64,000 nt of DNA from an uncultured Actinomycetota bacterium (GCA_963803135.1 CAWDLH010000008.1:432281-496280); one strand, 5' to 3'; positions 11,373-60,648 are shown, counted from the first letter of the stretch. The notes: generated by a model from the letters alone, not told the origin. Program-made: numbers and translations.

Positions 11373-11783
11373 ATGGCGGAGTACGTGGTGCGGCCGGTGG
11401 GCCGGGTCGAATCGTCGCTGCAGAACCGGTCCGACGCGCCCAACCAGGGGGACGAGGGCGCGCCGGACTGCACGATCGCACTCGACCCGGACTACGCGAC
11501 GGCGGTGCGGGACGTCGCGGCCGGCACCGATCTGCTCGTGCTGACCTGGCTGGACCGCGCCAACCGCGACGTGCAGGCGGTGCGCCCGCGCGGCGATCGG
11601 AACCGGCCGGAGACCGGCGTGTTCAGCACCCGCTCCCCGGACCGGCCCAACCCGATCGGCCTGCACCGCGTGACCGTCCTCGCCGTCGACGGCACCCGCC
11701 TTCTCGTCCACGGTCTCGAAGCGCTCGACGGCACCCCCGTCGTCGACCTCAAACCCCCGCTCGGCCCCGTCGCCGAACGCTGA
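11373..11783 (+). CDS. trmO: tRNA (t6A37-N6)-methyltransferase TrmO/TsaA (YaeB family)
   Basis: VRPVGRVES...FSTRSPDRPNPIGLHRVTVLAVDGTRLLVHGLEALDGTPVVDLKP. Confidence 0.9.
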   Translation: MAEYVVRPVGRVESSLQNRSDAPNQGDEGAPDCTIALDPDYATAVRDVAAGTDLLVLTWLDRANRDVQAVRPRGDRNRPETGVFSTRSPDRPNPIGLHRVTVLAVDGTRLLVHGLEALDGTPVVDLKPPLGPVAER

Positions 11784-11786
11784 GGC

Positions 11787-11987
11787 CGCCCGCTCAGGCT
11801 GCGCCCATCGGCGCAGCCGGGCGAGGGCGCGCAGGGCGTCGGCGCTGGAGATCGGCTGGTCGTCCTCCAGCGCGGTCAGCTCCAGCTCGATCCACTCCCG
11901 GACGAGCGTCGAGGTCGGGACGCCTCGGCGCTGCGCCGCGGCCTTGAGTCGCTGGTCGAGCTCGAACGGCACCCGCAGGCGGATCAT
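11787..11987 (-). CDS. Ribbon-helix-helix (CopG/Arc/MetJ-like) protein; 3' end undefined because there is no in-frame stop before 10902
   Basis: MIRLRVPFELDQRLKAAAQRRGVPTSTLVREWIELEL is a textbook strand-helix-helix pattern. Its ATG overlaps the stop of the upstream gene (ATGA at 11984-11987). The frame then reads through, antisense to trmO. Confidence 0.55.
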
Positions 11988-12325
11988 GGACGGGTGTCGG
12001 GGGGTGGGAGGGCAGTGCTGAAGTCGCAGTCGGCGGCGACTCGGAAGCCGGCGGCGTGGAGGCGGTCGATGACGGTGGTGACGAACGCGACGACGGTGTC
12101 GTCGGGGACGTCGCCGGTCGCGTCGATGTCCACTGTGGACGGCCAGTCGAGGTGGTGCTGGCCGCGGGTGCGGTCGGGGTTGCGGCGGACGTCGACGGTG
12201 AAGCCGGGGACCCGGAAGACGTCGAGGTGGTCGGCCGGGCCGAGCAGGTCGGCGACGACCGGGACGAGGGTGGCCGGGTCGGGCGTGTCGACGTAGAGCA
12301 CGCACCACCGGTAGGCGGCGGTCAT
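11984..12325 (-). CDS. 113-aa acidic protein of unknown family; candidate cognate immunity/neutralising partner
   Basis: ATGA overlap with the stop of the upstream toxin-like gene (12322-12325) and with the downstream RHH start. Predicted mixed alpha/beta pattern. I recognise no family. Confidence 0.65.
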   Translation of the reverse strand: MTAAYRWCVLYVDTPDPATLVPVVADLLGPADHLDVFRVPGFTVDVRRNPDRTRGQHHLDWPSTVDIDATGDVPDDTVVAFVTTVIDRLHAAGFRVAADCDFSTALPPPDTRP

Positions 12326-13635
12326 GGGACCCGTAGCCACGGCTCGTTGTCGAACATCCCGCCGCGTTTGATGACGGCGAGGTCGACCTTCCGGTCGAGG
12401 TCGGTCTCCAGCGCGGCGCGCAGCTGCTTCAGGCCGGCGTGGCGGGAGAAGATCCGGCCGCGGGCGACCGCGTTGGTCCGCGCCTCGGTGGTCGCGTTGC
12501 CGAAGAAGTCCTTGATCAGCCGGTCGTACTCGTCGGGCGGGACGCGCAGGCCGAAGTCGATGTCGGACGCGCCCCGGGCGGAGTGGCCGGCGCGGCTGCC
12601 CTGGACGACCACGTCGCCGGTCAGCCCGCGGGCGGTCGACCGGATCCGGGCCGCCGCCGCCGCGAGCTGGTCGGCGCTGATGCCCTCCGGAAGGGTGCCG
12701 ACCGCGCGGAAGACCCGGCCGCGGACGGCCGGCGGGATGGCCCGGTTGACCGCCTTGAGGCCGCGGGCGACGGCGGGCACGGCGCGCACCATCCGGGCGA
12801 CCGGGCCGGTCGGCAGCGCGGTCAGCGCCGCGTCGGCGGCCAGGCCCTTCCAGGAACCGCGGCCGGTCGCCCAGACGACGCCGGCGTCGATCGCGACCGC
12901 CGCCGTGCCGAGGGCGATCGCACCCGGGGCGAGGAACTGGAACCCCGGCACCAGGCTCGCGGTGCCGAGCACCATCGCGGCCAGCCGCAGGCCGCCGGCG
13001 ATCTCGGAGAGCACCTCGGCGTGGGCGGCGATCCAGCCGCGGGCCCGGTCCCGGATCCGCTCCAGCAGGCCGGGCTCCCGGTGCGGCGGGTCGGCGGCGG
13101 CCGCGCGGATCCTGGCCGCGGCGTGGGCGGCGTCGGCGCGGTGGTCGCCCAGCAGGCGGCGGGCTTCGGCGATCACGGCCTCCAGCTCGTCCGCGAGCGC
13201 GCGGGCGGCCGCGGCCGCATCGCCGTCGGACGCGGCACCGATCCGCCCACCCGACCGACCCCCGGCGCCGACAAGGGCGGCGGGGCGGGCGAACTCGAGC
13301 CCGGCGGCGCGGAACCGCAGAGCGGCGGCGCGGTCCTCCAGGTCGGCGGCGTGCAGCTGGCGCGCGACCAGATCGTCTGCGTAGGCGGTCAGCTCGCGGG
13401 CCAGGGTCCCGTGCGCGGCCGCGGCGCGGGTCATGTCGGCGGGCAGCTCGCGGGTGCGGTGCCGGCAGGCGTCGGCGGCCGAGCCCCGCCACCGCGCGTC
13501 GAGCCGGCCGGCCGCGGCCGCCGCTCCGGCCAGCGCCCGGGCCGCCCGGTCGGCCTCCCGGGCCTGCGCCAACAGCGCCGCCGGCGAGCCCGGAGCCGGG
13601 TCGAAGCCGAGCGCCGGGAACGTCCGCATCGCCAT
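12322..13635 (-). CDS. Polymorphic-toxin-like protein: T7SS-signal/WXG-like helical N-terminus, two TM segments, C-terminal Pol-beta-type (MNT-like) nucleotidyltransferase domain
   Basis: N-terminus ALGFDPAPGSPAALLAQAREADRAA...ARWRGSAADA (W-x-G at about residues 49-51). Hydrophobic pair LRLAAMVLGTASLVPGFQFLAPGAIALGTAAVAIDAGVVWA. C-terminus VVVQGSRAGHSARGASDIDFGLRV...KVDLAVI matches hG[GS]-x10-DhDh plus a third acidic residue. Confidence 0.8.
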   Translation of the reverse strand: MAMRTFPALGFDPAPGSPAALLAQAREADRAARALAGAAAAAGRLDARWRGSAADACRHRTRELPADMTRAAAAHGTLARELTAYADDLVARQLHAADLEDRAAALRFRAAGLEFARPAALVGAGGRSGGRIGAASDGDAAAAARALADELEAVIAEARRLLGDHRADAAHAAARIRAAAADPPHREPGLLERIRDRARGWIAAHAEVLSEIAGGLRLAAMVLGTASLVPGFQFLAPGAIALGTAAVAIDAGVVWATGRGSWKGLAADAALTALPTGPVARMVRAVPAVARGLKAVNRAIPPAVRGRVFRAVGTLPEGISADQLAAAAARIRSTARGLTGDVVVQGSRAGHSARGASDIDFGLRVPPDEYDRLIKDFFGNATTEARTNAVARGRIFSRHAGLKQLRAALETDLDRKVDLAVIKRGGMFDNEPWLRVP

Positions 13636-13873
13636 CGCGTCCTCCTCGTCCGGATCAAACCTGTGGCGAGGTTAGGGGCGAGCGGGCCCGATCAGACCGA
13701 CGAGTTGCGAACTGTGGACAACGAGCGGAGTGCGTCGACCGCCACCGCGAGCCCGGCCCGCCGCCGGCACTCCCGCCAGCACCGCCGCCAGGCGGCCGGC
13801 GCGGTCGACGGTCCCCGGCGCATCTAGGTTGATCCGACGAGGCGCAGCGGCTGGCGACAGGAAAGGGGTGGCG

Positions 13874-14221
13874 ATGAGTGAGTTGGGGGAGCTGCGGCGG
13901 GCGATGCGGGAGTTCACCGACGAGCGTGGGTGGGCCCCGTTCCATGATCCCAAGTCGGTACTGCTGGCGCTGGTCGGCGAGGTGGGGGAGCTGGCCGAGC
14001 TGCTGCAGTGGTTGCCGGCCGACCGGGTCGCCGAGCTGGCCCGGGGCGAGACGCTGCGCCGGCGGCTCGGCGAGGAGATGTCCGACGTGCTGCTCTACCT
14101 CGTGCTGCTCGCCGACGTCCTGGAGGTGGATCTGGCGGCGGCGGCGGAGGCGAAGCTCGCCGACGCCCGCGTCCGTTACCCCGTCGGGGCGCCGCCGGAC
14201 AGGGAGAACAGGGCGAGGTAG
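13874..14221 (+). CDS. MazG-like nucleotide pyrophosphohydrolase (small all-alpha NTP-PPase)
   Basis: FHDPKSVLLALVGEVGELAELLQW and LGEEMSDVLLYLVLLADVLEVDL (EExxE metal motifs). GAAAGGGG lies before ATG 13874. Confidence 0.85.
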   Translation: MSELGELRRAMREFTDERGWAPFHDPKSVLLALVGEVGELAELLQWLPADRVAELARGETLRRRLGEEMSDVLLYLVLLADVLEVDLAAAAEAKLADARVRYPVGAPPDRENRAR

Positions 14222-15171
14222 CCGCCCGTGAGGGAGCCGAGGGCCACCGCCCCGGACCGCTCGCGTACGCCGGTGACGAAGCCGAACTTCTCGCCCGGCG
14301 CCTGGAAGTCGTGCACCAGGTGGCCATCCGGGTCGTACGCCTGGACCCAGAGCGTGTGCGCCGGCTGCGGCTGGAACCGGTCCGGCAGCGCCCAGACCGC
14401 CTTGCGCAGCGCCGGCCGGCGTGGCAACAGCCAGTCCAGCGTGCGGTCGCGCGGGCTGCCGATCGCGACCCAGATCAGCCCGTCCGAGCCGGTGGAGACG
14501 TTGTCCGGGAAGCCGGGCAGGTTGTCCACGAACACCGAGTCCGTGCCGTCGGCGACCGACCAGCGCCGCAGCCGATACGCCGCGGTCTCCGCCACCACGA
14601 CGAACGATCCGTCCGGGGCGAGCGCCACCCCGTTCGCGAACTGCAGGCCGTCCAGCAGCGTCGTCGTCTCCGCGCGCAGCCCGCGGCGCAGCAGCCGCCC
14701 GGTCCCGGAATGCTGCAGCAGCTCGCCCTTCCAGTGGTCGATCCCGATCCCGCCGGTCGAGTCGCTGAAGTAGATCGTGCCGTCCGCTGCGACCGCGGCG
14801 TTGTTGCAGAACGAGAGCCCGTCGACCAGGGTCTCCACGGCACCCGACTCGACCGAGACCCGCAGCAGCCCACGGCGGGCGTCGCAGACCAGCAGGCCGC
14901 CGTCGGGCAGCCACTCCAGCCCGAGCGGGCGCCCGCCGGTGTCGGCGAGCACGTCGACCCGCCGCCCGTCCGGGGTCAGCCGCAGCACCCGCCCGTCCGC
15001 AACCCCGCACAGCACCCGGCCGGACTCGTCGAACAGCACGTCCTCGGGTCCGCGCCCGATCACGTCGAGCACGGTCAGCGGCGGCACGTCCCGCTCGCTG
15101 CGCGGCCGGCCGGCCCGGGCCGGCGCGGTCGGGGGCTGCCAGACGGCGGGGTCGATCGCGGGGCGCGCCAT
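14176..15171 (-). CDS. SMP-30/gluconolactonase/LRE / strictosidine-synthase-like beta-propeller protein
   Basis: GRGPEDVLFDESGRV..., LGLEWLPDGGLLVCDA, FCNNAAVAADGTIYFSDS, ANGVALAPDGSFVVVAET, PDNVSTGSDGLIWVA. It is the 3' third of the 1572-aa track ORF. Its end overlaps mazG convergently by 46 bp. Confidence 0.85.
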   Translation of the reverse strand: MARPAIDPAVWQPPTAPARAGRPRSERDVPPLTVLDVIGRGPEDVLFDESGRVLCGVADGRVLRLTPDGRRVDVLADTGGRPLGLEWLPDGGLLVCDARRGLLRVSVESGAVETLVDGLSFCNNAAVAADGTIYFSDSTGGIGIDHWKGELLQHSGTGRLLRRGLRAETTTLLDGLQFANGVALAPDGSFVVVAETAAYRLRRWSVADGTDSVFVDNLPGFPDNVSTGSDGLIWVAIGSPRDRTLDWLLPRRPALRKAVWALPDRFQPQPAHTLWVQAYDPDGHLVHDFQAPGEKFGFVTGVRERSGAVALGSLTGGYLALFSLSGGAPTG

Positions 15172-15297
15172 GGCTGCATCCTGCCCCCTCGCCGGCCGCC
15201 CGACGTGGTGCCGGAGGCAGGAGTTGTGTCCGGTTTGCCGACCCATGCGGTGGGTATCCGGCCCGTTGAGGCGTCCTTGACCGTTCCGGAGGTGCAT

Positions 15298-16731
15298 ATG
15301 ACTACCGAGGACGTCCGATTCGGTGGGATGTTCGCCGTCAAGTCGGCCGACGCGCACCTCGAACACGCCGAGCGGGAGGGCAAGCTGCGCCGGGCGATCG
15401 GCCTCGGCGACCTCACCGCCCTCGGCCTCGGCGCGATCATCGGCACCGGAATCTTCGTCATCCTCGGCGAGGCGATCGGCGACGCCGGCCCGGCGATCGT
15501 GCTCTCGTTCATCCTCGCCGGCGTGACGTGCGCCTTCTCCGCGCTGTCGTACAGCGAGCTGGCCTCCTCGATCCCGATCTCCGGCAGCGCCTACACGTAC
15601 GCGTACGCGACGCTCGGGGAGCTGCTGGCCTGGATCATCGGCTGGGACCTGATCCTCGAGTACGGCGTGTCGGTGGCGGCGGTCGCGGTCGGCTGGGGCG
15701 AGTACCTCAACGAGCTGCTGGACACGCTGTTCGGCTTCACGCTGCCGGACGCGATCTCCCAGCCGCCGGGGGAGGGTGGCGTCGTCAACCTGCCCGCCGC
15801 ATTCCTGGTGCTGGCGGTGACGGGGGTGCTCATCCTCGGCGTGAAGGAGAGCGCCAGGGCCAACACGGTCATGGTGCTGATCAAGATCGGCGTGCTGGTG
15901 CTGTTCCTGGTCCTCGCGTTCACCGCGTTCAAGTCCGACAACATCCGCCCGTTCATGCCGCTGGGCTTCAGCGGGGTGAGCACGGCGGCGGCGGCGATCT
16001 TCTTCGCGTACATCGGGTTCGACGCGGTGTCCACCTCGGGCGAGGAGGTGAAGCGGCCGAGCCGGGACCTGCCGCTGGCCATCATCGGCTCGCTGGCGAT
16101 CGCCACCCTGCTCTACTGCCTCGTCGCCCTGGCCGCCACCGGCGCGCTCCCGTGGCAGCAGCTCAACGGTGCGGGCGCGCCGCTCGCGGTCGTGCTGTCC
16201 GAGGGCGTCGGCACGGCCTGGGGCGCCGGCGTGATCGAGATCGGCGCGCTGGTGGCGATCACCAGCGTCGTGCTCACGATCCTCTACGGCCAGACCCGGA
16301 TCATGTACGCGATGTCCCGCGACGGGCTGGTCCCCCGGGCGTTCTCGCGCACCGGCCGGCGGGCCACCCCGGCCGTGTGCACCGCGATGTTCGGCGTGCT
16401 CATCGCCGTGCTGGCCGCGACCGTGCCGCTCGAGATCATCTTCGAGCTGGTCAACATCGGCACACTGTTCGCGTTCGTGATCGTCAACATCGGCGTGATC
16501 GTGCTGCGGCGGACCCGGCCGGACCTGCCGCGCGGCTTCCGGGTGCCGTGGGTCCCGGTGGTGCCGATCATCGGTGCGCTGCTGTGCTTCTACCTCATGA
16601 AAGAGCTGACCGTGCAGACGTGGCTGCGGTTCGTCGTCTGGCTGGCGGTCGGCCTGGTGCTGTACTTCGCGTACGGGCGGCGGCACTCGCGCCTGCAGCA
16701 CGGCGAGACCGTGATCACGGACGAGACCTGA
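15298..16731 (+). CDS. APC-superfamily amino acid permease
   Basis: LGDLTALGLGAIIGTGIFVILGEA..., about 12 TM, 477 aa. GGAGG lies before ATG 15298. Confidence 0.9.
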   Translation: MTTEDVRFGGMFAVKSADAHLEHAEREGKLRRAIGLGDLTALGLGAIIGTGIFVILGEAIGDAGPAIVLSFILAGVTCAFSALSYSELASSIPISGSAYTYAYATLGELLAWIIGWDLILEYGVSVAAVAVGWGEYLNELLDTLFGFTLPDAISQPPGEGGVVNLPAAFLVLAVTGVLILGVKESARANTVMVLIKIGVLVLFLVLAFTAFKSDNIRPFMPLGFSGVSTAAAAIFFAYIGFDAVSTSGEEVKRPSRDLPLAIIGSLAIATLLYCLVALAATGALPWQQLNGAGAPLAVVLSEGVGTAWGAGVIEIGALVAITSVVLTILYGQTRIMYAMSRDGLVPRAFSRTGRRATPAVCTAMFGVLIAVLAATVPLEIIFELVNIGTLFAFVIVNIGVIVLRRTRPDLPRGFRVPWVPVVPIIGALLCFYLMKELTVQTWLRFVVWLAVGLVLYFAYGRRHSRLQHGETVITDET

Positions 16732-24990: not shown

Positions 24991-26469
24991 CTAGGGGGTC
25001 GGGTCGACCGGGTGCGGGCCGGGGTCGTGACCCGGGCCCGGCCGGCGGCGTGGCGGCAGCTCGACGTGCGGCTCGGCGCGCGGGGCCGACCGGGCCGCCG
25101 GCCCCGGACCGGCGTCGTCGACCGAGATGACGCTGCGGGTCGACAGCCCGGCCAGGTAGTACGCCTCCGGGGCCAGCGCGGGCCCGGCCAGCACGACCAC
25201 GTCGACGTCCGCCCGCGGCAGTCCGCGCAGGTACGCCCCGCGCGTGGTCGCGGCGGCCAGCCGCAGCCGGGTACGCAGCGCCGGCTCGACGTCCTCGCGG
25301 GCGGCGATCAGCTCCCGCCGGGCCGCGGCCAGCCGACGGCGCCGGTCGCCACCGGGACCGACCACGTCCTCGACGCTCGGCACCGGCCGGTCGTCGGCGG
25401 CCAGCTCGGACGCGATCCGGTCGGCGTCGCGCCGGGCCGAGCGGCTCTGGTTGCGCAGCTCGTGCCGGCGGACGACCAGCGTGTCCGGGTCGATGCCGCG
25501 GTCCCGCCGACCGCGCCGGGCGCCGACCGTACGCCCGAGCTCGCTGTCCAGCTCGGCCGCGTCCCGCTCGGCCGACCCGGCGATCCGGTCCAGCTCGTCG
25601 TAGCGCATCCGGCCCTCGGCCCGGTCCAGGTCGGACAGCCGTGCGTCCACGCCGGCGCGCAGGTCGGCGGCGATCGTCGCCGGCTCCACGAACGGCCCCC
25701 ACCGGTCCCGGACCGCGCCTGGCGTCAGCGGCCCGATCCGCTGCACCTGCCCCGAGCGCAGCCGGCCGGAGCGGGCCAGCCGCTCGCACACCGCGCCGAC
25801 CGTGCGATCCACCGCGACGGCGGTCGGCGCGACGAACAGCACCAGCGCATCCACCGCGAGCAGCCGGTCCAGCAGCCGCGCGACCAGCCCGCCCGGGTCG
25901 CCGCCGGGCGGCGTGCGGACCTGGGCCCAGCGCTGCCGCAGGGCGCTGCGCAGCACGTCGCCGGCCCGGTCGTCGTACCGCCACTCCTCGGCCGCGTCGG
26001 CGGCCGCGGCGATCCCGTCGTTCAGCCGGCCGCCGGGCGTGCCGAGCACCAGCTCGGCCTGGTCGAACCGGAAGGTCGGCGGGACCGGCGACTCACCCTT
26101 CAGCGCGCCCAGCCGCTGCCGGAGCCCGCGCAGCGGGCCCAGGTTGTCGACCACCAGCCGCCCGTCGAGCACCCGGGGACCCAGGTCCTCGGCCACCTCG
26201 ACCAGGCAGCTCTCGTCCGCGACCGAGCCGAGCCGGCCGTCGACCGCCCGCTCGCCGAGCGTGAGCCAGGCCGGCGCGTCCTCGACCAGCGTCGCCTCCG
26301 GCGGCGGGTCGACCCGGTAGAGGTAGCCGCCCGGGCCACGGGCCACCCGGGTCGCGTCCACGGCGAACGCGGCCCGCTCACCGCCGGTCCGCGCCGCGGC
26401 CAGCTCTCGGTCCACGACGTCCTGCATCGCCCGCAGGGCCCGCTCGTGATCCGGCGCGCGCAGCCTCAC
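24991..26469 (-). CDS. Hypothetical protein resembling the N-terminal barrel and 1A domain of Upf1/DNA2-type SF1 helicases, with degenerate Walker A/B motifs and a coiled-coil insert
   Basis: TPPGGDPGGLV sits where GxxGxGK[TS] is expected, VLFVAPTAVAVDRTV (compare APSNAAVD), and DVDVVVLAGPALAPE where DEAxQ is expected. There is no 2A domain. GGGAGGG lies 6 nt before GTG 26469. Confidence 0.6.
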   Translation of the reverse strand: MRLRAPDHERALRAMQDVVDRELAAARTGGERAAFAVDATRVARGPGGYLYRVDPPPEATLVEDAPAWLTLGERAVDGRLGSVADESCLVEVAEDLGPRVLDGRLVVDNLGPLRGLRQRLGALKGESPVPPTFRFDQAELVLGTPGGRLNDGIAAAADAAEEWRYDDRAGDVLRSALRQRWAQVRTPPGGDPGGLVARLLDRLLAVDALVLFVAPTAVAVDRTVGAVCERLARSGRLRSGQVQRIGPLTPGAVRDRWGPFVEPATIAADLRAGVDARLSDLDRAEGRMRYDELDRIAGSAERDAAELDSELGRTVGARRGRRDRGIDPDTLVVRRHELRNQSRSARRDADRIASELAADDRPVPSVEDVVGPGGDRRRRLAAARRELIAAREDVEPALRTRLRLAAATTRGAYLRGLPRADVDVVVLAGPALAPEAYYLAGLSTRSVISVDDAGPGPAARSAPRAEPHVELPPRRRPGPGHDPGPHPVDPTP

Positions 26470-26533
26470 CTTCGGCCCTCCCTGTTGCGACACAACGTAG
26501 TCGATGGGGCACCCAACGCGACAGACTCGGCGT

Positions 26534-33448: not shown

Positions 33449-36064
33449 TCACGCGGCGCCGAACGCGTTGAAGGCGCAGCAGGTCACGAACGCGCGCGGC
33501 TCCTCCGGGTCCAGCGCGGAGCGCGCGGCGAACAGCGCCTCCGCCAGAGTCGCTCCGCGCCGTATCGACTTGTGCAGCGCGCACATCAGCGGCACCACGT
33601 CCCAGTCCGGTACGACGATGGCGCTCGCCACGAGGCCGGCCGTACCCCGCGCCAGCAGGGCGGAGACGAAGCCGAGCGTCTCGTTCCCCTCGTACCCCAC
33701 CTCGGAGCCGGACTCGCACGCCGCCAGCACGACCCGGTGCGGGGCCGGTCCGCGCAGTTCCAGTTCGTGCAGTGTCAGCGGTCCGTCGGCGAGCAGCAGC
33801 GAGGAGAAGATCGGGTTGTCCGGCCGCACCCGGCCGTGACAGGCCAGGTGCGCCAGCGACGCGCGGGACAGCGCGGACACCACCGCGGCCGCGACCGACG
33901 TGGGCGGCCGCAGCACGATCGCCTCCGGATGGATGCCGGCCAGCGCGGTCACCTCCGCCGACCCGCCGGGCACGTCCGGGCCGGCCGCCAGCACGACGTC
34001 ATCGCCGACCGGCCGGGCCAGCGCGCTGCGTTGCCACCATGCGGCGGACGGGGCCACCGAGACCGGCGCGGTGTGCAGCGCCGCCCACGGCACCCGCTGC
34101 AGCTCGCCGACCGGCACCACGACGAGGCCGGGATGCTCCGCGAGCCCCAGCGGGTCGAGCAGGAGCGCGGTGAGCTTCCGCAGCCCGGTCCGGGCCGAGG
34201 CCAGCGCCGCCGGCTGCGGGCGCCCTCGGGCCAGCCGCCGCAGCGCGAACAGCAGCGACCGGATCTCGAACAGCACCGCAGCGACCGGACCGAGGTGGAC
34301 CAGCCGGGTCCGGCCCGGCTCGAGCACCGCCGCGATCACCTCTGCGTCGAGCACGTCGTACTCGACCAACACCCGGCCGGCGAGCGTGGTCCGAAGCGCC
34401 GCCGTCGACAGCCGGGCCGGCCTGGCCGTCGGGCCGGACGCCCGCAGCCACGAGCTGCGCCGGATGCGGGCCTCCAGCTCGGCCTGGCGCGTCGCCAGCT
34501 CGGCCTGCCGGTCCCGGGCCGGCCCCGCTCGCAGCTCGGCGGCCGCCGCCCGCATGGCGGCGAGCTCCCCGTCGAGGTCCGCGTCCACCGCACCGGCCGG
34601 ACCCACCGGGTGCAGCTCGACCGCCGATCCCGCCGCGGCCCGGGTGCGCTCCATCCACTCCAGCGCGCGCGCCGGTGAACCGTCTCGGACCACCGCCGCC
34701 AGCCCCAGCCGGCCCAGCTCGGCGCCCTGCCCGGACGCCAGCACCCGCAGCTCGTACGAGGCCAGCGAGGACCTGTGCCGGGCGAGGTCGGCGAGACCGG
34801 CCCGGCAGTGCCGCAGCACGGTCGCGTCGTCCCGGGCCGCCCGTCCGGCCAGGGCACCGGCCACCCGCCCGCGCAGGCGCACCAGCACGGGCGCGCCCCT
34901 CGACAGCTCCAGAGCCGTCGTCCAGGCCGACCTCGCCGGGCCGCTCCGACCGGCGGCCGCCGCGACCCGGCCGGCCAGGAGGTAGGCGTGCACCGCGGCC
35001 GGCATCCGGGCCCGTCGCAGGACAGCCGCGGCCCGGCGCGCCGCCGTCACGTCGGACGGCAGCCCATGCCCGGTCCGCAGCCGAGCCTCCAGCGCGACCA
35101 GGTCGGCCCGGGCCGCCCAGCTCGCCCGGCGTTGCCGCCGGAACTGGGCCGCCACCTCGGCCGCGGCGGCGGCGGCCGCCGTCGGGTTGCCGTCCAGCAG
35201 TAGCAACTGCGCCGCCCGCAGCTGCGCCTCGGCGGCCATCAGCGGCATCCCGGACAGGTCGAGCAGGCGGACGGCGGTCCGGCTCTGCTGCTGCGCCTCC
35301 GGCAGCAGCCGCAGCGCGACCAGCGCATCGGTGAGCTCGACGTACAGCTCGCCGAGCGGCAGCCCGGCGACCTCCCACAGCCTGGCCGCCTCGTCGAACA
35401 TCGCCAGGCCGTCGGTCAGCCGCCCGGCCTGCACCGTCGCCGCCGCGCGGGACTCCGCGATCGCCGCGGCGTAGGTGGGCACGACGCCGGCGGCCGCCTC
35501 GGCAGCCTGGTCGAGCCACCCGAGTGCGATCTGTGGCCGGCCGCGCTCGCTCTCGATGACGCCGAGGTTGTTGGCCGCCTTGGCCCGCACGTCCCGCGGT
35601 ACGCCTGGGCTGGCGAGCACCCGTCGGTACAGCCGCGCCGCGTCCTCCAGCCGGCCCTGGTTCAGGTGCAGCGCGCCCTGCTGGGCGGCCAGCTCGGCGG
35701 CCATCCCCGGCGGGACGAACGCGGCCGCGGCGGTGAAGTCGTGCTGTGCCGCCGACGGGCGACCCAGCTCGTGGTTGACCGCGCCCCGGGTGACCAGGAC
35801 CTCGCCGAGCCGCTCGGCCAGCCCCTCCCGGCGGGCGATCCGCGCGGCCTCGTCGAGCAGCCGCTTGGCCCGCTTCCCGTCGAGCCGCGTGCGGTGATAC
35901 CAGGCCTCCGCCCGCAGCGCAGCGACCAGCGCTTCGGGTGGCCCGGACCGGCGGGCCACACCGACGAGGGCGACCGCGGCGGGACCGGCTCCCTCCGGGT
36001 CGGCAACGACCTTGGCATATGCCGCCGAGGCGAGTATCAGGATCTCAGAGTCGTGCTCGTTCAT
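33449..36064 (-). CDS. TPR-repeat / CHAT-domain (caspase-like) protease, cytoplasmic
   Basis: 871 aa. The N-terminal ~560 aa are helical TPR-like repeats. The C-terminal CHAT domain has the His-Cys dyad in SLAHLACHG and VVLAACESG. No signal peptide. Confidence 0.9.
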   Translation of the reverse strand: MNEHDSEILILASAAYAKVVADPEGAGPAAVALVGVARRSGPPEALVAALRAEAWYHRTRLDGKRAKRLLDEAARIARREGLAERLGEVLVTRGAVNHELGRPSAAQHDFTAAAAFVPPGMAAELAAQQGALHLNQGRLEDAARLYRRVLASPGVPRDVRAKAANNLGVIESERGRPQIALGWLDQAAEAAAGVVPTYAAAIAESRAAATVQAGRLTDGLAMFDEAARLWEVAGLPLGELYVELTDALVALRLLPEAQQQSRTAVRLLDLSGMPLMAAEAQLRAAQLLLLDGNPTAAAAAAAEVAAQFRRQRRASWAARADLVALEARLRTGHGLPSDVTAARRAAAVLRRARMPAAVHAYLLAGRVAAAAGRSGPARSAWTTALELSRGAPVLVRLRGRVAGALAGRAARDDATVLRHCRAGLADLARHRSSLASYELRVLASGQGAELGRLGLAAVVRDGSPARALEWMERTRAAAGSAVELHPVGPAGAVDADLDGELAAMRAAAAELRAGPARDRQAELATRQAELEARIRRSSWLRASGPTARPARLSTAALRTTLAGRVLVEYDVLDAEVIAAVLEPGRTRLVHLGPVAAVLFEIRSLLFALRRLARGRPQPAALASARTGLRKLTALLLDPLGLAEHPGLVVVPVGELQRVPWAALHTAPVSVAPSAAWWQRSALARPVGDDVVLAAGPDVPGGSAEVTALAGIHPEAIVLRPPTSVAAAVVSALSRASLAHLACHGRVRPDNPIFSSLLLADGPLTLHELELRGPAPHRVVLAACESGSEVGYEGNETLGFVSALLARGTAGLVASAIVVPDWDVVPLMCALHKSIRRGATLAEALFAARSALDPEEPRAFVTCCAFNAFGAA

Positions 36065-36130
36065 CTGGGCCCGCCATCACCATCGGATCCGAAGCCTACG
36101 GGCGACCGCCAACACAGGGTAGGGAGTCAC

Positions 36131-37477
36131 ATGACAGACGAGCCGGACGGCACCCCGGTCGAGCGGCGCCTCCAGGACCTGCTGCGGGACGTGCTGACCG
36201 TGCGCCGGCACACCACCGACTTCGGCCGGACCTGGGAGGACCGGGCCTGGCGGCGCGAGGTGCTCGAGCGGTCCCGCTCGAGCCGGACGCTGCTTCCCGA
36301 GCTGCCGCAGGTCGACATCCTCGAGCGGCCCGAGGAGGACTATCTCGTCGGCGTGGGGGAGCTGCTCATCCGCGCCGACGCGTACGACGGGCTGGCCCAG
36401 CGGCTGGCCGAGGCCGCGGGCTTCACGGCGGAGCCGATGGAATGCCTCCGCGGTCGGGTCATCCGCCTGCTCCGGCCCGGTGCCGGCGCCGGCGAGCTCG
36501 CCGACGCGGCCGACCGGATGCGCGAGCGCGGCGTGCGGGTCACGTTCAACTTCGTGCCGCCGATGGCCGTGGTGATCAAGTCCCGGGGCGGTCCTGAGCC
36601 GGCCGCCCGCAGCTGGCCGCCGCATCCCCCGGCCATCTCGGCAGGTCGGGTCCGGGTCGCGATCGTCGACACCGGGGTGGCCGAACAGAAGCGCGGCGAC
36701 GGCTGGCTCGACGGTCTGGCCGACGCCGGCAACATCGACCTGCTCTACTCCAATCCGGATGCGGCTCCCGCCGACCGACGGCTCGACGCGGCGGGCGGGC
36801 ACGGTACCTCGGTGGCGGGGATCATCCAGCACGAGGCCCCGTCGGCCACCCTGGCCATGCACGCGGCGGTGCCGCCGGACGGCTCGGCGCTGGAGTCGGC
36901 GATCGCCTGCGCGATGGTCGGCGCGGTCCAGGAAGGCTTCGACGCCGATCAGGACGTCGTGCTCAACCTCTCCCTCGGCACGACGACCACGGACGACGAG
37001 CCGCCGGTGGCGCTGCAGGCCGCGCTCGACGTGATCGAGGAGATGGCGGCCGAGCAGCGCCGGGACGTGCTGGTCGTGGCCGCGGCCGGCAACTACGGCG
37101 ACACCCGGCCGGTGTGGCCGGCGGCGCTGCGCGGAGTGGTCGCGGTCGGCGCGCTGACCCAGCAGATGACCCCGGCGCCGTGGTCCAGTCACGGTGCGTG
37201 GGTGGACTGCGCAGTGCTCGGCGACGGCGTCCTGACGATCTACGTGGAGGGCACCGAGGACCCGTTCTTCGACACCGATCCGGACACGTTCGGGCCGGAC
37301 TCGTTCGCGCTGCAGTTCGGGACGTCGTTCGCGGCTCCGCAGGTGGCGGGCCGGGTGGCGTACGTGGCGGAGGAGGAGAACGTGAGCCTGCGGCAGGCGC
37401 TCGCCCTGGTGCTCGCCGGCGCCAGCCGGATCCCGGACTTCGGTCGGGTCGTGGCGATCCAGTCGCCGGTCGGCTGA
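36131..37477 (+). CDS. S8 (subtilisin-like) serine peptidase without a signal peptide, with a ~185-aa unknown N-terminal domain
   Basis: Catalytic D in VAIVDTGV, H in GGHGTSVAGI, oxyanion N in VLNLSLG, S in GTSFAAPQVAG. The N-terminus MTDEPDGTPVERRLQD is hydrophilic. AGGGAG RBS. Confidence 0.9.
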   Translation: MTDEPDGTPVERRLQDLLRDVLTVRRHTTDFGRTWEDRAWRREVLERSRSSRTLLPELPQVDILERPEEDYLVGVGELLIRADAYDGLAQRLAEAAGFTAEPMECLRGRVIRLLRPGAGAGELADAADRMRERGVRVTFNFVPPMAVVIKSRGGPEPAARSWPPHPPAISAGRVRVAIVDTGVAEQKRGDGWLDGLADAGNIDLLYSNPDAAPADRRLDAAGGHGTSVAGIIQHEAPSATLAMHAAVPPDGSALESAIACAMVGAVQEGFDADQDVVLNLSLGTTTTDDEPPVALQAALDVIEEMAAEQRRDVLVVAAAGNYGDTRPVWPAALRGVVAVGALTQQMTPAPWSSHGAWVDCAVLGDGVLTIYVEGTEDPFFDTDPDTFGPDSFALQFGTSFAAPQVAGRVAYVAEEENVSLRQALALVLAGASRIPDFGRVVAIQSPVG

Positions 37478-58950: not shown

Positions 58951-59169
58951 CCGGGCCGGTTTCGGCATCTACGCAGCGGTACGACACGACTGCGCAACGT
59001 CGGATTGGGTACGGGTTACCCGTGATTCATCACAGAGCGTATCCGACCTGTGGGAAAGATGGGCGGGCGCGGGGACGGCTTGACCCCTATGGTGGACCCC
59101 GCCGGGAAGCCGGGCGGTCGACGAAGGGGGCCGGAGCGCCCCGACCGAGACCTTTTTCACGGGGGTGAC

Positions 59170-60648
59170 ATGACAGCCGACGCGCGGTCCGCGGTGTCCG
59201 CCGACGAGTCGCAGCAGTCCGTCGAGGACGCCGCGGAGCGCACTGCGGGTCCGCGGCCGTCCGGTGACGGGGACGCGGGCCGGTCCTTCTCGCACCTGCC
59301 GACCGGCAACGGCGCCACCCCCGGTCCGCCCATCGCGGACGGCGCCACCGACGCCGCCTCCGACGCGGCCGCCCAGCGCGACCAGGCTCCCGCCGACGAG
59401 CCCGACAGAGCCGCCGCCGACAGAGCCGCCGCCGACAGCGCCGACGCGGACGGCCGGGTCGGCGACGGGGACGGTGCGGTCGTGGAGGATCGTGCGGCCG
59501 CTGACGGCCGGGTCGAGTCCGGCGACGGCGGGGTCGTGGAGGATCGTGCGGCCGCTGACGGCCGGATCGGGTCCGGCGAGGGTGTGGTCGTGGACGAGCG
59601 CGCCGACGACGGGGACGGAATGGCCGTGGAGGATCGTGCGGCCGCTGACGGCCGGGCCGAGGCCGGAGACGCGACCGTGGACGACCGGCCCTCCGATCCG
59701 GACGGTCGCGCCGTCGACGGTGTGGCGCTGGAGGACCGGGCCGCCGCGGATGTCCGCGACCGGGCCGACCCGGACGGTCGCGCCGATGACGGTGTGGCGC
59801 TGGAGGACCCGGCCGCCGGGGATGCGCTCGACCGGGCCGACCCGGCCGGTCGCGCCGTCGACGGTGTGGCGCTGGAGGACCGGACCGACGGGGATGCGCT
59901 CGACCAGGCCGACCCGGCCGGTCGCGCCCTCGACGGTGTGGCCCTGGCGGACCCGACTGCCGCGGATGCGCTCGACCAGGCCGCCGCGGAAGCCGTCGAC
60001 CGGGCCGTCGTGGACGGCCGCGCCGATGACGAGGTCGACCGGGCCGCCGCGGACGGCCGGGTCGAGGCCGCGGACTCGACCGAGGTCGAGCCGGCCCTTG
60101 CCGGGGGCGTCGACCGGGACGACCCGGAGGGCCGTGTGGACGGTCCGGACGGCGCGGTCGAGCAGGCGCCGGCGGGAGCGGACGATCCGTGGATCCGCAG
60201 CGCCGGCGCGGACCGCGCCGAGGTCGTCGAGGACGAGGTCGTCGCGGCCGAGGTGGCCGAGCAGCTGGGGGCCGTGGTCGGCGAGGACTCCGACGCCGAC
60301 CCGGCCGAGTTCGCCGCCGCCGCCGTGCTCGACGTCCTGCGCGCGTCCGGCTGGGCCGATGCCGCGGAGGCCACCGAGCTGCGGGCCGAGGCGGCCCGGC
60401 TCCGCGAGCTGCTCGCCGAGGTGATCCGCGACCACCGCGCTCGCGAGGCCTCGATGGCCGGCTTCGAGCACCAGCAGCTGCACTGGCTGGTGCCGCTGCT
60501 GCGGGCCGCGCACGGGGTCGCCTTCGGCAGCCTCGGCGCCAAGGTCGCCCTCCGCACCGCGGTCCAGGACGTGCCACCGGAGGTCCTCGCCTCCGCCGGG
60601 CTCCGCATCGACTACGGCGTCCCCGCCGACCACGAGGACGACCGCTAG
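59170..60648 (+). CDS. Acidic Asp/Ala/Arg/Gly-rich repeat protein with a conserved helical C-terminal domain
   Basis: ATG 59170. Degenerate repeats of the type VEDRAAADGRV / DRADPAGRAVDGVALED across about 59400-60110. C-terminus ...FEHQQLHWLVPLLRAAHGVAFGSLGAKVALRTAV. Confidence 0.65.
   Translation: MTADARSAVSADESQQSVEDAAERTAGPRPSGDGDAGRSFSHLPTGNGATPGPPIADGATDAASDAAAQRDQAPADEPDRAAADRAAADSADADGRVGDGDGAVVEDRAAADGRVESGDGGVVEDRAAADGRIGSGEGVVVDERADDGDGMAVEDRAAADGRAEAGDATVDDRPSDPDGRAVDGVALEDRAAADVRDRADPDGRADDGVALEDPAAGDALDRADPAGRAVDGVALEDRTDGDALDQADPAGRALDGVALADPTAADALDQAAAEAVDRAVVDGRADDEVDRAAADGRVEAADSTEVEPALAGGVDRDDPEGRVDGPDGAVEQAPAGADDPWIRSAGADRAEVVEDEVVAAEVAEQLGAVVGEDSDADPAEFAAAAVLDVLRASGWADAAEATELRAEAARLRELLAEVIRDHRAREASMAGFEHQQLHWLVPLLRAAHGVAFGSLGAKVALRTAVQDVPPEVLASAGLRIDYGVPADHEDDR

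Follow-up and report, generated by a model that had tools for sequence, protein, structure and literature searches.

Can a minimal nucleotidyltransferase (NTase) of the MNT type, a domain known as the antitoxin partner of HEPN toxins, serve instead as the tip of an exported toxin? The question is raised by positions 11,787 to 13,635 of a 64,000-nucleotide stretch of DNA from an uncultured Actinomycetota bacterium (GCA_963803135.1, CAWDLH010000008.1:432281-496280), hereafter the window, whose positions are counted from its first letter. There, on the minus strand, a gene for a 437-residue protein is followed by one for a 113-residue protein and then by a ribbon-helix-helix (RHH)-like frame, with an ATGA overlap at each junction. 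An earlier, sequence-only reading had taken these for a three-gene cassette, made of a toxin with an N-terminus for type VII secretion (T7SS) and an NTase warhead, an orphan immunity protein and a dedicated RHH regulator. The analysis described here argues that the first two genes make up a polymorphic toxin-immunity module, of the actinobacterial WXG/T7SS_signal class, an assignment that is likely to be correct. Three of the features used by Zhang et al. (2012) as criteria for polymorphic toxins are found here: the N-terminus is shared with proteins that have unrelated C-termini, the C-terminal tip is reused, and a downstream partner tracks it.

The first line of evidence is the build of the 437-residue protein, whose gene occupies 12322..13635 on the minus strand (437 codons and a stop), as defined by its open reading frame (ORF) and its homologues. 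A search of 5.8 billion proteins returned 109 of these, mainly from Mycobacteriales and Actinomycetota metagenome bins, and segment-wise BLAST divides them into two sets. P0001-P0089 match over the full length, including the NTase end, while P0090-P0109 match residues 1-300 only (the N-terminal region, the variable middle and the hairpin) and not residue 301 onward. The second set carries other C-termini, namely Gln_amidase (PF15644), Tox-REase-3 (PF15647), Endonuclea_NS_2, DUF6531 with RHS repeats, and unrecognised domains, and an Imm35 gene follows a Gln_amidase relative. The breakpoint between shared and swapped parts falls just past the hairpin, at about residue 300, inside a linker or pre-toxin region (residues 263-314; 12694..12849, minus strand). 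The polymorphism that the earlier reading had proposed to look for is thereby observed, and by its alignments the protein is modular, with a WxG-containing, presumably helical N-terminus, a conserved hairpin and a swappable C-terminal domain.

The N-terminal trafficking region comprises residues 1-205 (13021..13635, minus strand) and is delimited by the invariance of its WxG motif and the Pfam matches of relatives. On the same strand it contains the string FPALGFDPAPG (residues 6-16; 13588-13620), the WxG motif W49-R50-G51 (13483-13491) and, 3' of this motif, a variable Ala/Gly-rich stretch. W49 and G51 are invariant in 35/35 relatives; the Pfam family T7SS_signal (PF21725) is matched by 29 of these 35 (best E 5.4e-11; 38.2 bits for P0091 and 30.6 bits for P0061, against a cutoff of 27) and WXG100 by 18. 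The T7SS_signal, WXG100 and NTP_transf_2 assignments are made because relatives of the window protein match these families, and the proposed WXG100-like N-terminus is indicated in this sense, for the family rather than for the window protein alone. Beside one related toxin locus (L003) there is a DUF6507/EspC/WXG100-like gene. The same contig also encodes, at L003:2943-4427, a PfkB/CTP_transf_like protein (sugar kinase and cytidylyltransferase) with a precomputed T7SS_signal match, which is probably a low-complexity artefact.

The hydrophobic helical hairpin that follows (residues 206-262; 12850..13020, minus strand) was delimited by Kyte-Doolittle analysis and conservation, and consists of two helical arms around an LVPGFQFLAPG turn, closing with GRGSW. 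The hairpin, including the LVPGxQFLAP turn, is kept in every relative, whatever C-terminus it carries. It is Ala/Gly-rich and of moderate hydrophobicity, with a 19-residue maximum of 1.67 around residues 221-249; thus, of the two transmembrane segments first suggested, the conserved hairpin stands and their hydrophobicity is only moderate. Insertion of the hairpin into a membrane would be consistent with these features.

The second line of evidence comes from the C-terminal domain (residues 315-437; 12325..12693, minus strand), delimited by residue invariance and Pfam matches. The motif hG[GS]-x9-13-Dh[DE]h is present as VVVQGS-RAGHSARGAS-DIDFG, which includes QGSRAGHSARGASDIDFG (residues 345-362), and a third acidic residue is provided by D418 in KVDLAV (residues 416-421); these strings, like the 437-residue frame, FPALGFDPAPG and W49-R-G51, lie where they were first reported. 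The predicted catalytic residues G346-S347, D358, D360 and D418 are invariant in 19 relatives, in which a GGxFDxEPW tail is also conserved. All 19 match NTP_transf_2 (PF01909; best E 4.6e-5) and 18 match Polbeta. The window domain itself scores 12-15 bits against NTP_transf_2 over residues 339-419, versus a cutoff of 21, and 16.7 bits against NCBIfam MntA over residues 343-372, versus a cutoff of 60, while homologous domains in RHS, VENN, eCIS and WXG100 proteins reach 27-37 bits for NTP_transf_2, above the Pfam cutoff. An AlphaFold2 model of the domain (pLDDT 82.5, below 50 at its start) shows the element order helix-strand-strand-helix...strand. When a broader profile was compared with PDB sequences, only minimal NTases of the MNT type rose above noise, and these marginally (9xbd, E 1e-3; 7ae2, E 2.7e-3; also 1no5, 8xeo, 4ebj and 5yep). 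Collectively, these comparisons identify the C-terminal domain, at the level of sequence, as a minimal nucleotidyltransferase of the Pol-beta superfamily whose GS...DxD...D set is intact, as had been proposed.

The same domain is also found on other delivery scaffolds. A HMMER scan of 1.84 billion representative proteins recovered 450 clusters (50% identity) with the NTase domain, 109 of them at E <=1e-30. Among the top representatives, the domain ends at most 12 residues from the C-terminus in 138 of 140, behind N-terminal extensions of 0-1333 residues. Carriers among the top matches include RHS repeats, eCIS_core (DUF4157), PT-VENN, a VgrG-like Phage_GPD fragment, LysM and a tandem Tox-HNH-HHH, together with helical N-termini that look LXG-like by eye and match no LXG family. 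In the genome collection, the domain occurs in Streptomyces, Brevibacillus, Thermoanaerobaculia, Orbaceae, Sphingomonas, Listeria, Enterococcus and Bacillus. In particular, a Streptomyces protein (L022) combines T7SS_signal (166 bits), DUF6531, RHS and the NTase, and a Brevibacillus protein (L023) combines WXG100 (45.5 bits) with the NTase (35.5 bits). The earlier statement that MNT domains are not known as secreted warheads agrees with literature searches, but the window protein is no one-off fusion, as the domain is widespread. No relatives were found when the NTase profile was compared with viral contigs, so that an origin from a prophage or of the PEST type (discussed below) is not supported.

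Two observations on these carriers may be added. Two metagenome-assembled genomes (MAGs) of the Mycobacteriales/Corynebacteriales, SMAG_U368 (L013 and L016) and AVDCRST_MAG41 (L014 and L015), each hold two diverged NTase toxin-immunity pairs, with toxin domains 73-76% and 58-59% identical to that of the window; paralogous arsenals of this module therefore exist. At a PT-VENN NTase locus (L009:2727-9816), a string of small genes (Barstar, Imm8 and several unrecognised ones) lies together with a second PT-VENN protein, which looks like a poly-immunity or orphan-module array.

The third line of evidence is the partner. The 113-residue protein is encoded at 11984..12325 on the minus strand, as defined by its ORF and its downstream homologues, and its start overlaps the toxin stop in the ATGA at 12322-12325. 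It is acidic, with a pI of 4.55 compared with 9.8 for the NTase domain. Close homologues of about 112-117 residues lie on the same contigs as toxin homologues, and a profile search places the protein in a family of at least 143 clusters (108-175 residues); its acidity and coupling were thus correctly described, whereas its designation as an orphan was not. In a local search of the fetched loci with profile hidden Markov models, 24 of the 25 NTase loci that could be evaluated, drawn from four phyla (Actinomycetota, Bacillota, Pseudomonadota and Acidobacteriota), have an immunity homologue (about 110-125 residues) that starts 0-30 nucleotides past the toxin ORF. The exception (L021, from a further set of 20 loci) is without a clear immunity match, and its downstream ORF resembles a degenerate copy. 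The same search found no such homologue beside relatives with other C-termini, which are followed by other genes such as Imm35.

The association of domain and partner also extends beyond the window protein's own scaffold. Proteins colinear with the 113-residue protein are encoded by the small genes that follow an RHS-NTase (L007), an NTase with a helical N-terminus (L008) and a PT-VENN-NTase (L009); they have the motifs YC-x-I/L-Y/F-V, D-V/L-x-R-N and S-C-D-F-E-E in common with it, and hhalign relates the two groups with a probability of 96.8% (E 2.1e-10). Toxin and immunity divergence are correlated (r = 0.84, with 0/2000 permutations as high), the partner diverging faster. Because a homologue stands directly downstream in 24 of 25 loci in four phyla, and because the partners are related at the hhalign E-value just given, the 113-residue protein is best read from its sequence and context as the cognate immunity protein of the NTase domain. 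No Pfam or NCBIfam family is matched by the immunity proteins, the Pfam Imm families included, and the new downstream immunity family anticipated by the earlier reading is thus corroborated.

A natural deletion points the same way. Compared with the syntenic locus L003, locus L004 (L004:5601-6498 and L003:5901-7698) has a clean 896-bp deletion inside the toxin gene, in which the hairpin and the catalytic motifs are lost, while its immunity gene is intact, with 99% nucleotide identity to that of L003, and hence is an orphan immunity gene. Loss of the toxin with retention of the partner is the pattern expected for an antidote. About 2 kb from the deletion site in L003/L004 there is also an intact paralogous Gln-deamidase toxin with Imm35.

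As for annotation, immunity family members P0301, P0309, P0331, P0332, P0353, P0356 and P0357 bear the NCBI/UniRef name '1,4-dihydroxy-6-naphthoate synthase'. They come from Listeria monocytogenes, Enterococcus, Brevibacillus and Lachnospiraceae, other members being named 'hypothetical protein'. The enzyme name is implausible because of the small size of these proteins and their lack of a Pfam match, and it is almost certainly a propagated misannotation.

The fold of the partner bears on the possibility that the roles are reversed, with the NTase nucleotidylating its small partner as a regulator or antitoxin, as in HEPN-MNT systems, and the 113-residue protein being the real toxin. Such an arrangement would fit the fact that, in sequence and structure, the NTase comes closest to MntA-type antitoxins. 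Nonetheless, the 113-residue protein is predicted with high confidence (AlphaFold2, pLDDT 92.4) to form a small alpha/beta sandwich rather than an all-helical HEPN fold, and it has no match to a Pfam HEPN family. One R-x4-H string is present (R52...H57), in a variable loop and unconserved, and there is no conserved Rx4-6H; the HEPN reading of this protein was rejected on its predicted fold and this unconserved motif. Moreover, on export scaffolds the NTase takes the C-terminal place of a toxin tip, and its acidic partner lies downstream of it in the manner of immunity genes. A HEPN-MNT-like exchange of roles is accordingly most improbable. Of the structural searches suggested earlier, that with the NTase model leads to MNT-type proteins, weakly, and that with the 113-residue model gave only generic ferredoxin-like or PII-like matches in the PDB (E >=0.01), with no significant match and no known immunity fold.

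Several observations weigh against an exported NTase toxin and have to be set beside this evidence. Taken alone, the window protein has no PF21725 match and stays below the Pfam and NCBIfam thresholds for T7SS_signal, WXG100 and NTP_transf_2; its alignment to WXG100 (PF06013) covers residues 28-88 at E 0.17 and 12.6 bits, versus a cutoff of 27.3. PF21725 is itself described as no more than a 'putative' secretion signal. Past the WxG hairpin there is no YxxxD/E export motif, the sole tyrosine of the region being Y85 in Y-A-D-D-L, where relatives read Y-G-S-G-L; this motif is not universal among T7SS substrates. Foldseek places the NTase model closest to the MNT antitoxin, CD-NTases and ANT (aminoglycoside NTase) enzymes, and these matches are weak (E 0.04-1, TM about 0.35). 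In agreement with the earlier reading, neither Ecc/Ess machinery of the EccC/EssC type nor a WXG100 partner gene occurs among the approximately 35 annotated ORFs of the window, which amount to a partial scan. Finally, the cassette does not lie on an obvious mobile element but among housekeeping genes, where relatives show synteny: it is flanked by MazG-like and TrmO_N genes, and its location beside MazG, SGL and permease genes is common to a relative whose toxin is just 61% identical.

Some of these points would suit an intracellular module of the toxin-antitoxin (TA) type, in which a hairpin-tethered NTase acts on its producer in phage defence or stress arrest, the 113-residue protein is its antitoxin and nothing is exported. 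TA systems with NTase toxins are known (MenT, AbiEii), coupling between the two genes is tight, they occupy a syntenic chromosomal location, and the annotated ORFs of the window include no T7SS genes. Yet residues 1-300 are common to proteins with classical secreted polymorphic-toxin ends paired with Imm35, and the same NTase-immunity pair is found on the export scaffolds RHS, PT-VENN, eCIS_core and WXG100, which makes a purely intracellular role unlikely. A different proposal is that of a membrane-anchored housekeeping NTase, modifying an envelope component or a small molecule, with the 113-residue protein as a chaperone or substrate carrier and no weapon involved. The context of MazG, TrmO-like, amino-acid permease and ribonucleotide reductase genes would be in line with it, as would the occurrence of the fold in aminoglycoside NTases. 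It is, however, at odds with the polymorphic C-termini on the same N-terminal module, the presence of the NTase domain on RHS, VENN and eCIS scaffolds, the loss of the toxin gene with retention of the partner gene in L004 and the several paralogous pairs in some MAGs (L013 and L016; L014 and L015), and we give it very little credence.

If the locus is indeed a polymorphic toxin-immunity module, a sequence of events can be proposed. The ATGA coupling would ensure that toxin and immunity protein are made together, and the acidic immunity protein may bind and block the basic NTase domain in the cytoplasm of the producer. The N-terminal module would route the protein to a type VII (ESX-like) system whose genes lie in another part of the genome, with the hairpin either anchoring the protein in the membrane or aiding the C-terminal domain in crossing it. 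In a neighbour that does not have the immunity protein, the NTase, with nucleoside triphosphate and Mg2+, would add a nucleotide to an essential macromolecule and thus stop growth. The nature of this macromolecule may be approached by analogy. MenT and AbiEii are Pol-beta-fold toxins that arrest growth by nucleotide transfer, MenT acting on the acceptor ends of tRNA, while MntA AMPylates protein. By analogy with MenT, the leading guess, towards which we lean slightly, would be an RNA 3' end such as that of tRNA; by analogy with MntA, the alternative would be a protein side chain. The partner, for its part, has unusually well-conserved motifs (YCK-x-Y/F-V, D-V-x-R-N and S/A-C-D-F-E-E-L-P) and could do more than passively plug the toxin: it might, for instance, mimic the substrate or act as an enzyme that undoes the modification.

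The overall kind of system is already known. WXG-type (T7SS) polymorphic toxin systems of Actinobacteria were catalogued in 2012 by Zhang et al. (PMC3482391), and the only nucleotidyltransferase-type toxins given in that catalogue are RelA/SpoT-like. In Mycobacterium, prophage PEST cassettes are toxic unless the immunity gene is present (PMC10654092). The window cassette resembles the WXG-type systems (PMC3482391) and the PEST cassettes (PMC10654092) in its evidence of domain swapping. It differs in being chromosomal rather than in a prophage, in having no adjacent WXG100 partner gene in the window, and in its conserved hydrophobic hairpin after the WXG region, its MNT-like NTase toxin and its immunity protein, which matches no Pfam Imm family.

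Other nucleotidyltransferases and toxins are related to it to varying degrees. The MntA/MNT NTases of HEPN-MNT type VII TA systems (7ae9, 8xeo, 5yep, 1no5) have the same size, about 110-125 residues, and the same hG[GS]-x10-DxD signature with a third Asp; this similarity is marginal and confined to the GS...DxD region (E 1e-3 to 0.1), and these proteins are still the best sequence and structure matches. In HEPN-MNT systems the NTase is an antitoxin with a HEPN toxin, whereas in the window it is the tip of an export scaffold with a non-HEPN alpha/beta partner. MenT and AbiEii are likewise of the Pol-beta fold, but they are larger (DUF1814), belong to intracellular TA systems and are not fused to secretion modules, and the window protein has no Pfam match to the MenT/AbiEii family. 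Broadly, Tas1, a (p)ppApp synthetase effector of type VI secretion (T6SS), and the RelA/SpoT-like toxin domains are also secreted toxins of nucleotidyltransferase type with a downstream immunity protein; they belong to another clade (RSH), without sequence relationship to the window domain, and use another delivery system. CpnT of Mycobacterium tuberculosis is similar in being ESX-dependent, with a WXG-like membrane-associated N-terminal module, a C-terminal toxin and an immunity factor encoded downstream, but it has two WXG-like motifs and an NAD-glycohydrolase toxin, and shows no homology to the C-terminus or the immunity protein of the window.

What appears to be new is therefore the MNT-like NTase toxin domain together with its immunity family, neither of which we could find described; the literature searched holds no account of them, although its coverage excludes most subscription journals and the result is an absence of evidence only. 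For neither of the two is there a Pfam or NCBIfam model of its own. In its widest form, the proposal would be that of an undescribed toxin-immunity family spread over many phyla on T7SS, T6SS/VgrG, RHS, CDI-like (contact-dependent inhibition) and eCIS carriers, which kills by nucleotidylating a universally conserved target; put so broadly, the claim is tentative and somewhat more likely to fail than to hold. Polymorphic toxins are a main source of new antibacterial enzyme activities, and a delivered minimal MNT-like NTase toxin would, if real, represent a new biochemical class. The same tiny fold would then be an antitoxin in HEPN-MNT systems and a toxin here, with a dedicated immunity family in at least four phyla that include Listeria, Enterococcus, Streptomyces and Mycobacteriales. 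The target of the NTase, once identified, could uncover a novel means by which bacterial growth is arrested, and the module, if it works as proposed, would offer a handle on T7SS-dependent antagonism in environmental Mycobacteriales, a little-studied field. In addition, a definition of the immunity family would correct the 'hypothetical protein' and '1,4-dihydroxy-6-naphthoate synthase' annotations.

The third frame of the cassette, in turn, has a different status. A second ATGA, at 11984-11987 on the minus strand, overlaps the immunity stop with the ATG of the RHH-like frame, so that this junction and the RHH-like start were rightly noted. The frame has no in-frame stop at 11787, however, and remains open to 10902, crossing the convergent TrmO_N gene antisense and continuing past it, the read-through part having non-coding codon statistics. 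The gene remnant (CopG/RelB/BrnA-like) that can be recognised by comparison with relatives occupies 11794..11987. It matches Pfam CopG_antitoxin, RHH_1 and RHH_3 at E 1.5e-4 to 1.7e-3, all under the gathering cutoffs, and an NCBIfam RelB-like family at E 2.4e-6, again under the cutoff. The close relatives L010 and L011 show the full-length form: an RHH protein of about 102 residues, with the RHH at residues 41-75, encoded by a separate gene 3' of the immunity gene and ending in ...LRPMGAA*, just short of the convergent TrmO gene. Homology of the window to this gene starts at the RHH strand, at about 11977, and the 5' part of about 40 codons is missing; in its place stands the end of the immunity gene, where a conserved CCA-TGA supplies the in-frame ATG of the remnant. 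Near 11811 there is a 1-nucleotide deletion relative to the relatives, because of which the ancestral TGA (11794-11796) is out of frame. The same truncated and frameshifted state, with no gene called, is present in L006, the near-identical contig (homologue P0001, 99% identical) that served for comparison after a look-up of the exact window protein gave no match; in L012 and L013 the RHH is further decayed, and L001, L003 and L018 have none.

On this comparison, the RHH ORF reads as the pseudogenised leftover of an adjacent gene, with no conserved role in the cassette, and the idea of a three-gene cassette with its own RHH regulator is abandoned. The frame could conversely be taken for a working third gene, whose product, a minimal RHH repressor, would autoregulate the toxin operon to which ATGA has newly coupled it. 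Its ATG is in frame at the overlap, the core of strand, helix and helix is intact, codon-position GC is still gene-like (0.78/0.49/0.95) and the arrangement recurs in L006. On the other hand, the frame lacks about 40 N-terminal residues of its full-length homologues, the 1-nucleotide deletion removes the stop and thereby adds about 300 antisense codons through two genes with non-coding statistics, and the gene is separate, further decayed, absent or uncalled in the loci just described; a functional repressor is thus quite unlikely. In the region between immunity gene and trmO of L010 (L010:4816-5398), a 93-residue ORF accompanies the full-length 102-residue RHH gene, and the two may form a small toxin-antitoxin pair of which only an RHH fragment is kept in the window. 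A BrnT-type toxin reading of the 93-residue ORF was dropped, as it has no Pfam match.

A Shine-Dalgarno-like GAGGAGG lies at 13641-13647 on the minus strand, 5 nucleotides 5' of the toxin ATG. All three stretches, toxin, immunity and RHH-like, have gene-typical codon-position G+C, with values of 0.81/0.61/0.96 for the toxin gene. The G+C content of the window is about 75%, without a G+C anomaly, and promoter and terminator consensus scans of 11600-14000 gave no matches, such scans being uninformative at 75% GC. No second toxin of this NTase type is present in the window. Nearby housekeeping genes encode an amino-acid permease, an SGL-type protein, ADH, HxlR, a sigma factor and a Tricorn protease, and further genes of the window include ribonucleotide reductase, G6PD, xanthine dehydrogenase, KdpD, CorA and purine-catabolism genes.

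Elsewhere in the window, two ORFs of about 500-530 residues, at 24994-26493 (minus strand) and 59050-60645 (plus strand), have good coding statistics and no Pfam match at E <=0.001. At 33449-37477, a CHAT-domain/TPR protein (minus strand, about 871 residues) is convergent with a subtilase (Peptidase_S8, plus strand), the ORFs as drawn overlapping, and the two could be a conflict-system pair. Finally, the amino-acid permease is represented by two genes (307 and 173 residues) in L006:6906-8338 and by one long ORF at about 14311-16731 in the window, a difference that may reflect a frameshift or the assemblies.

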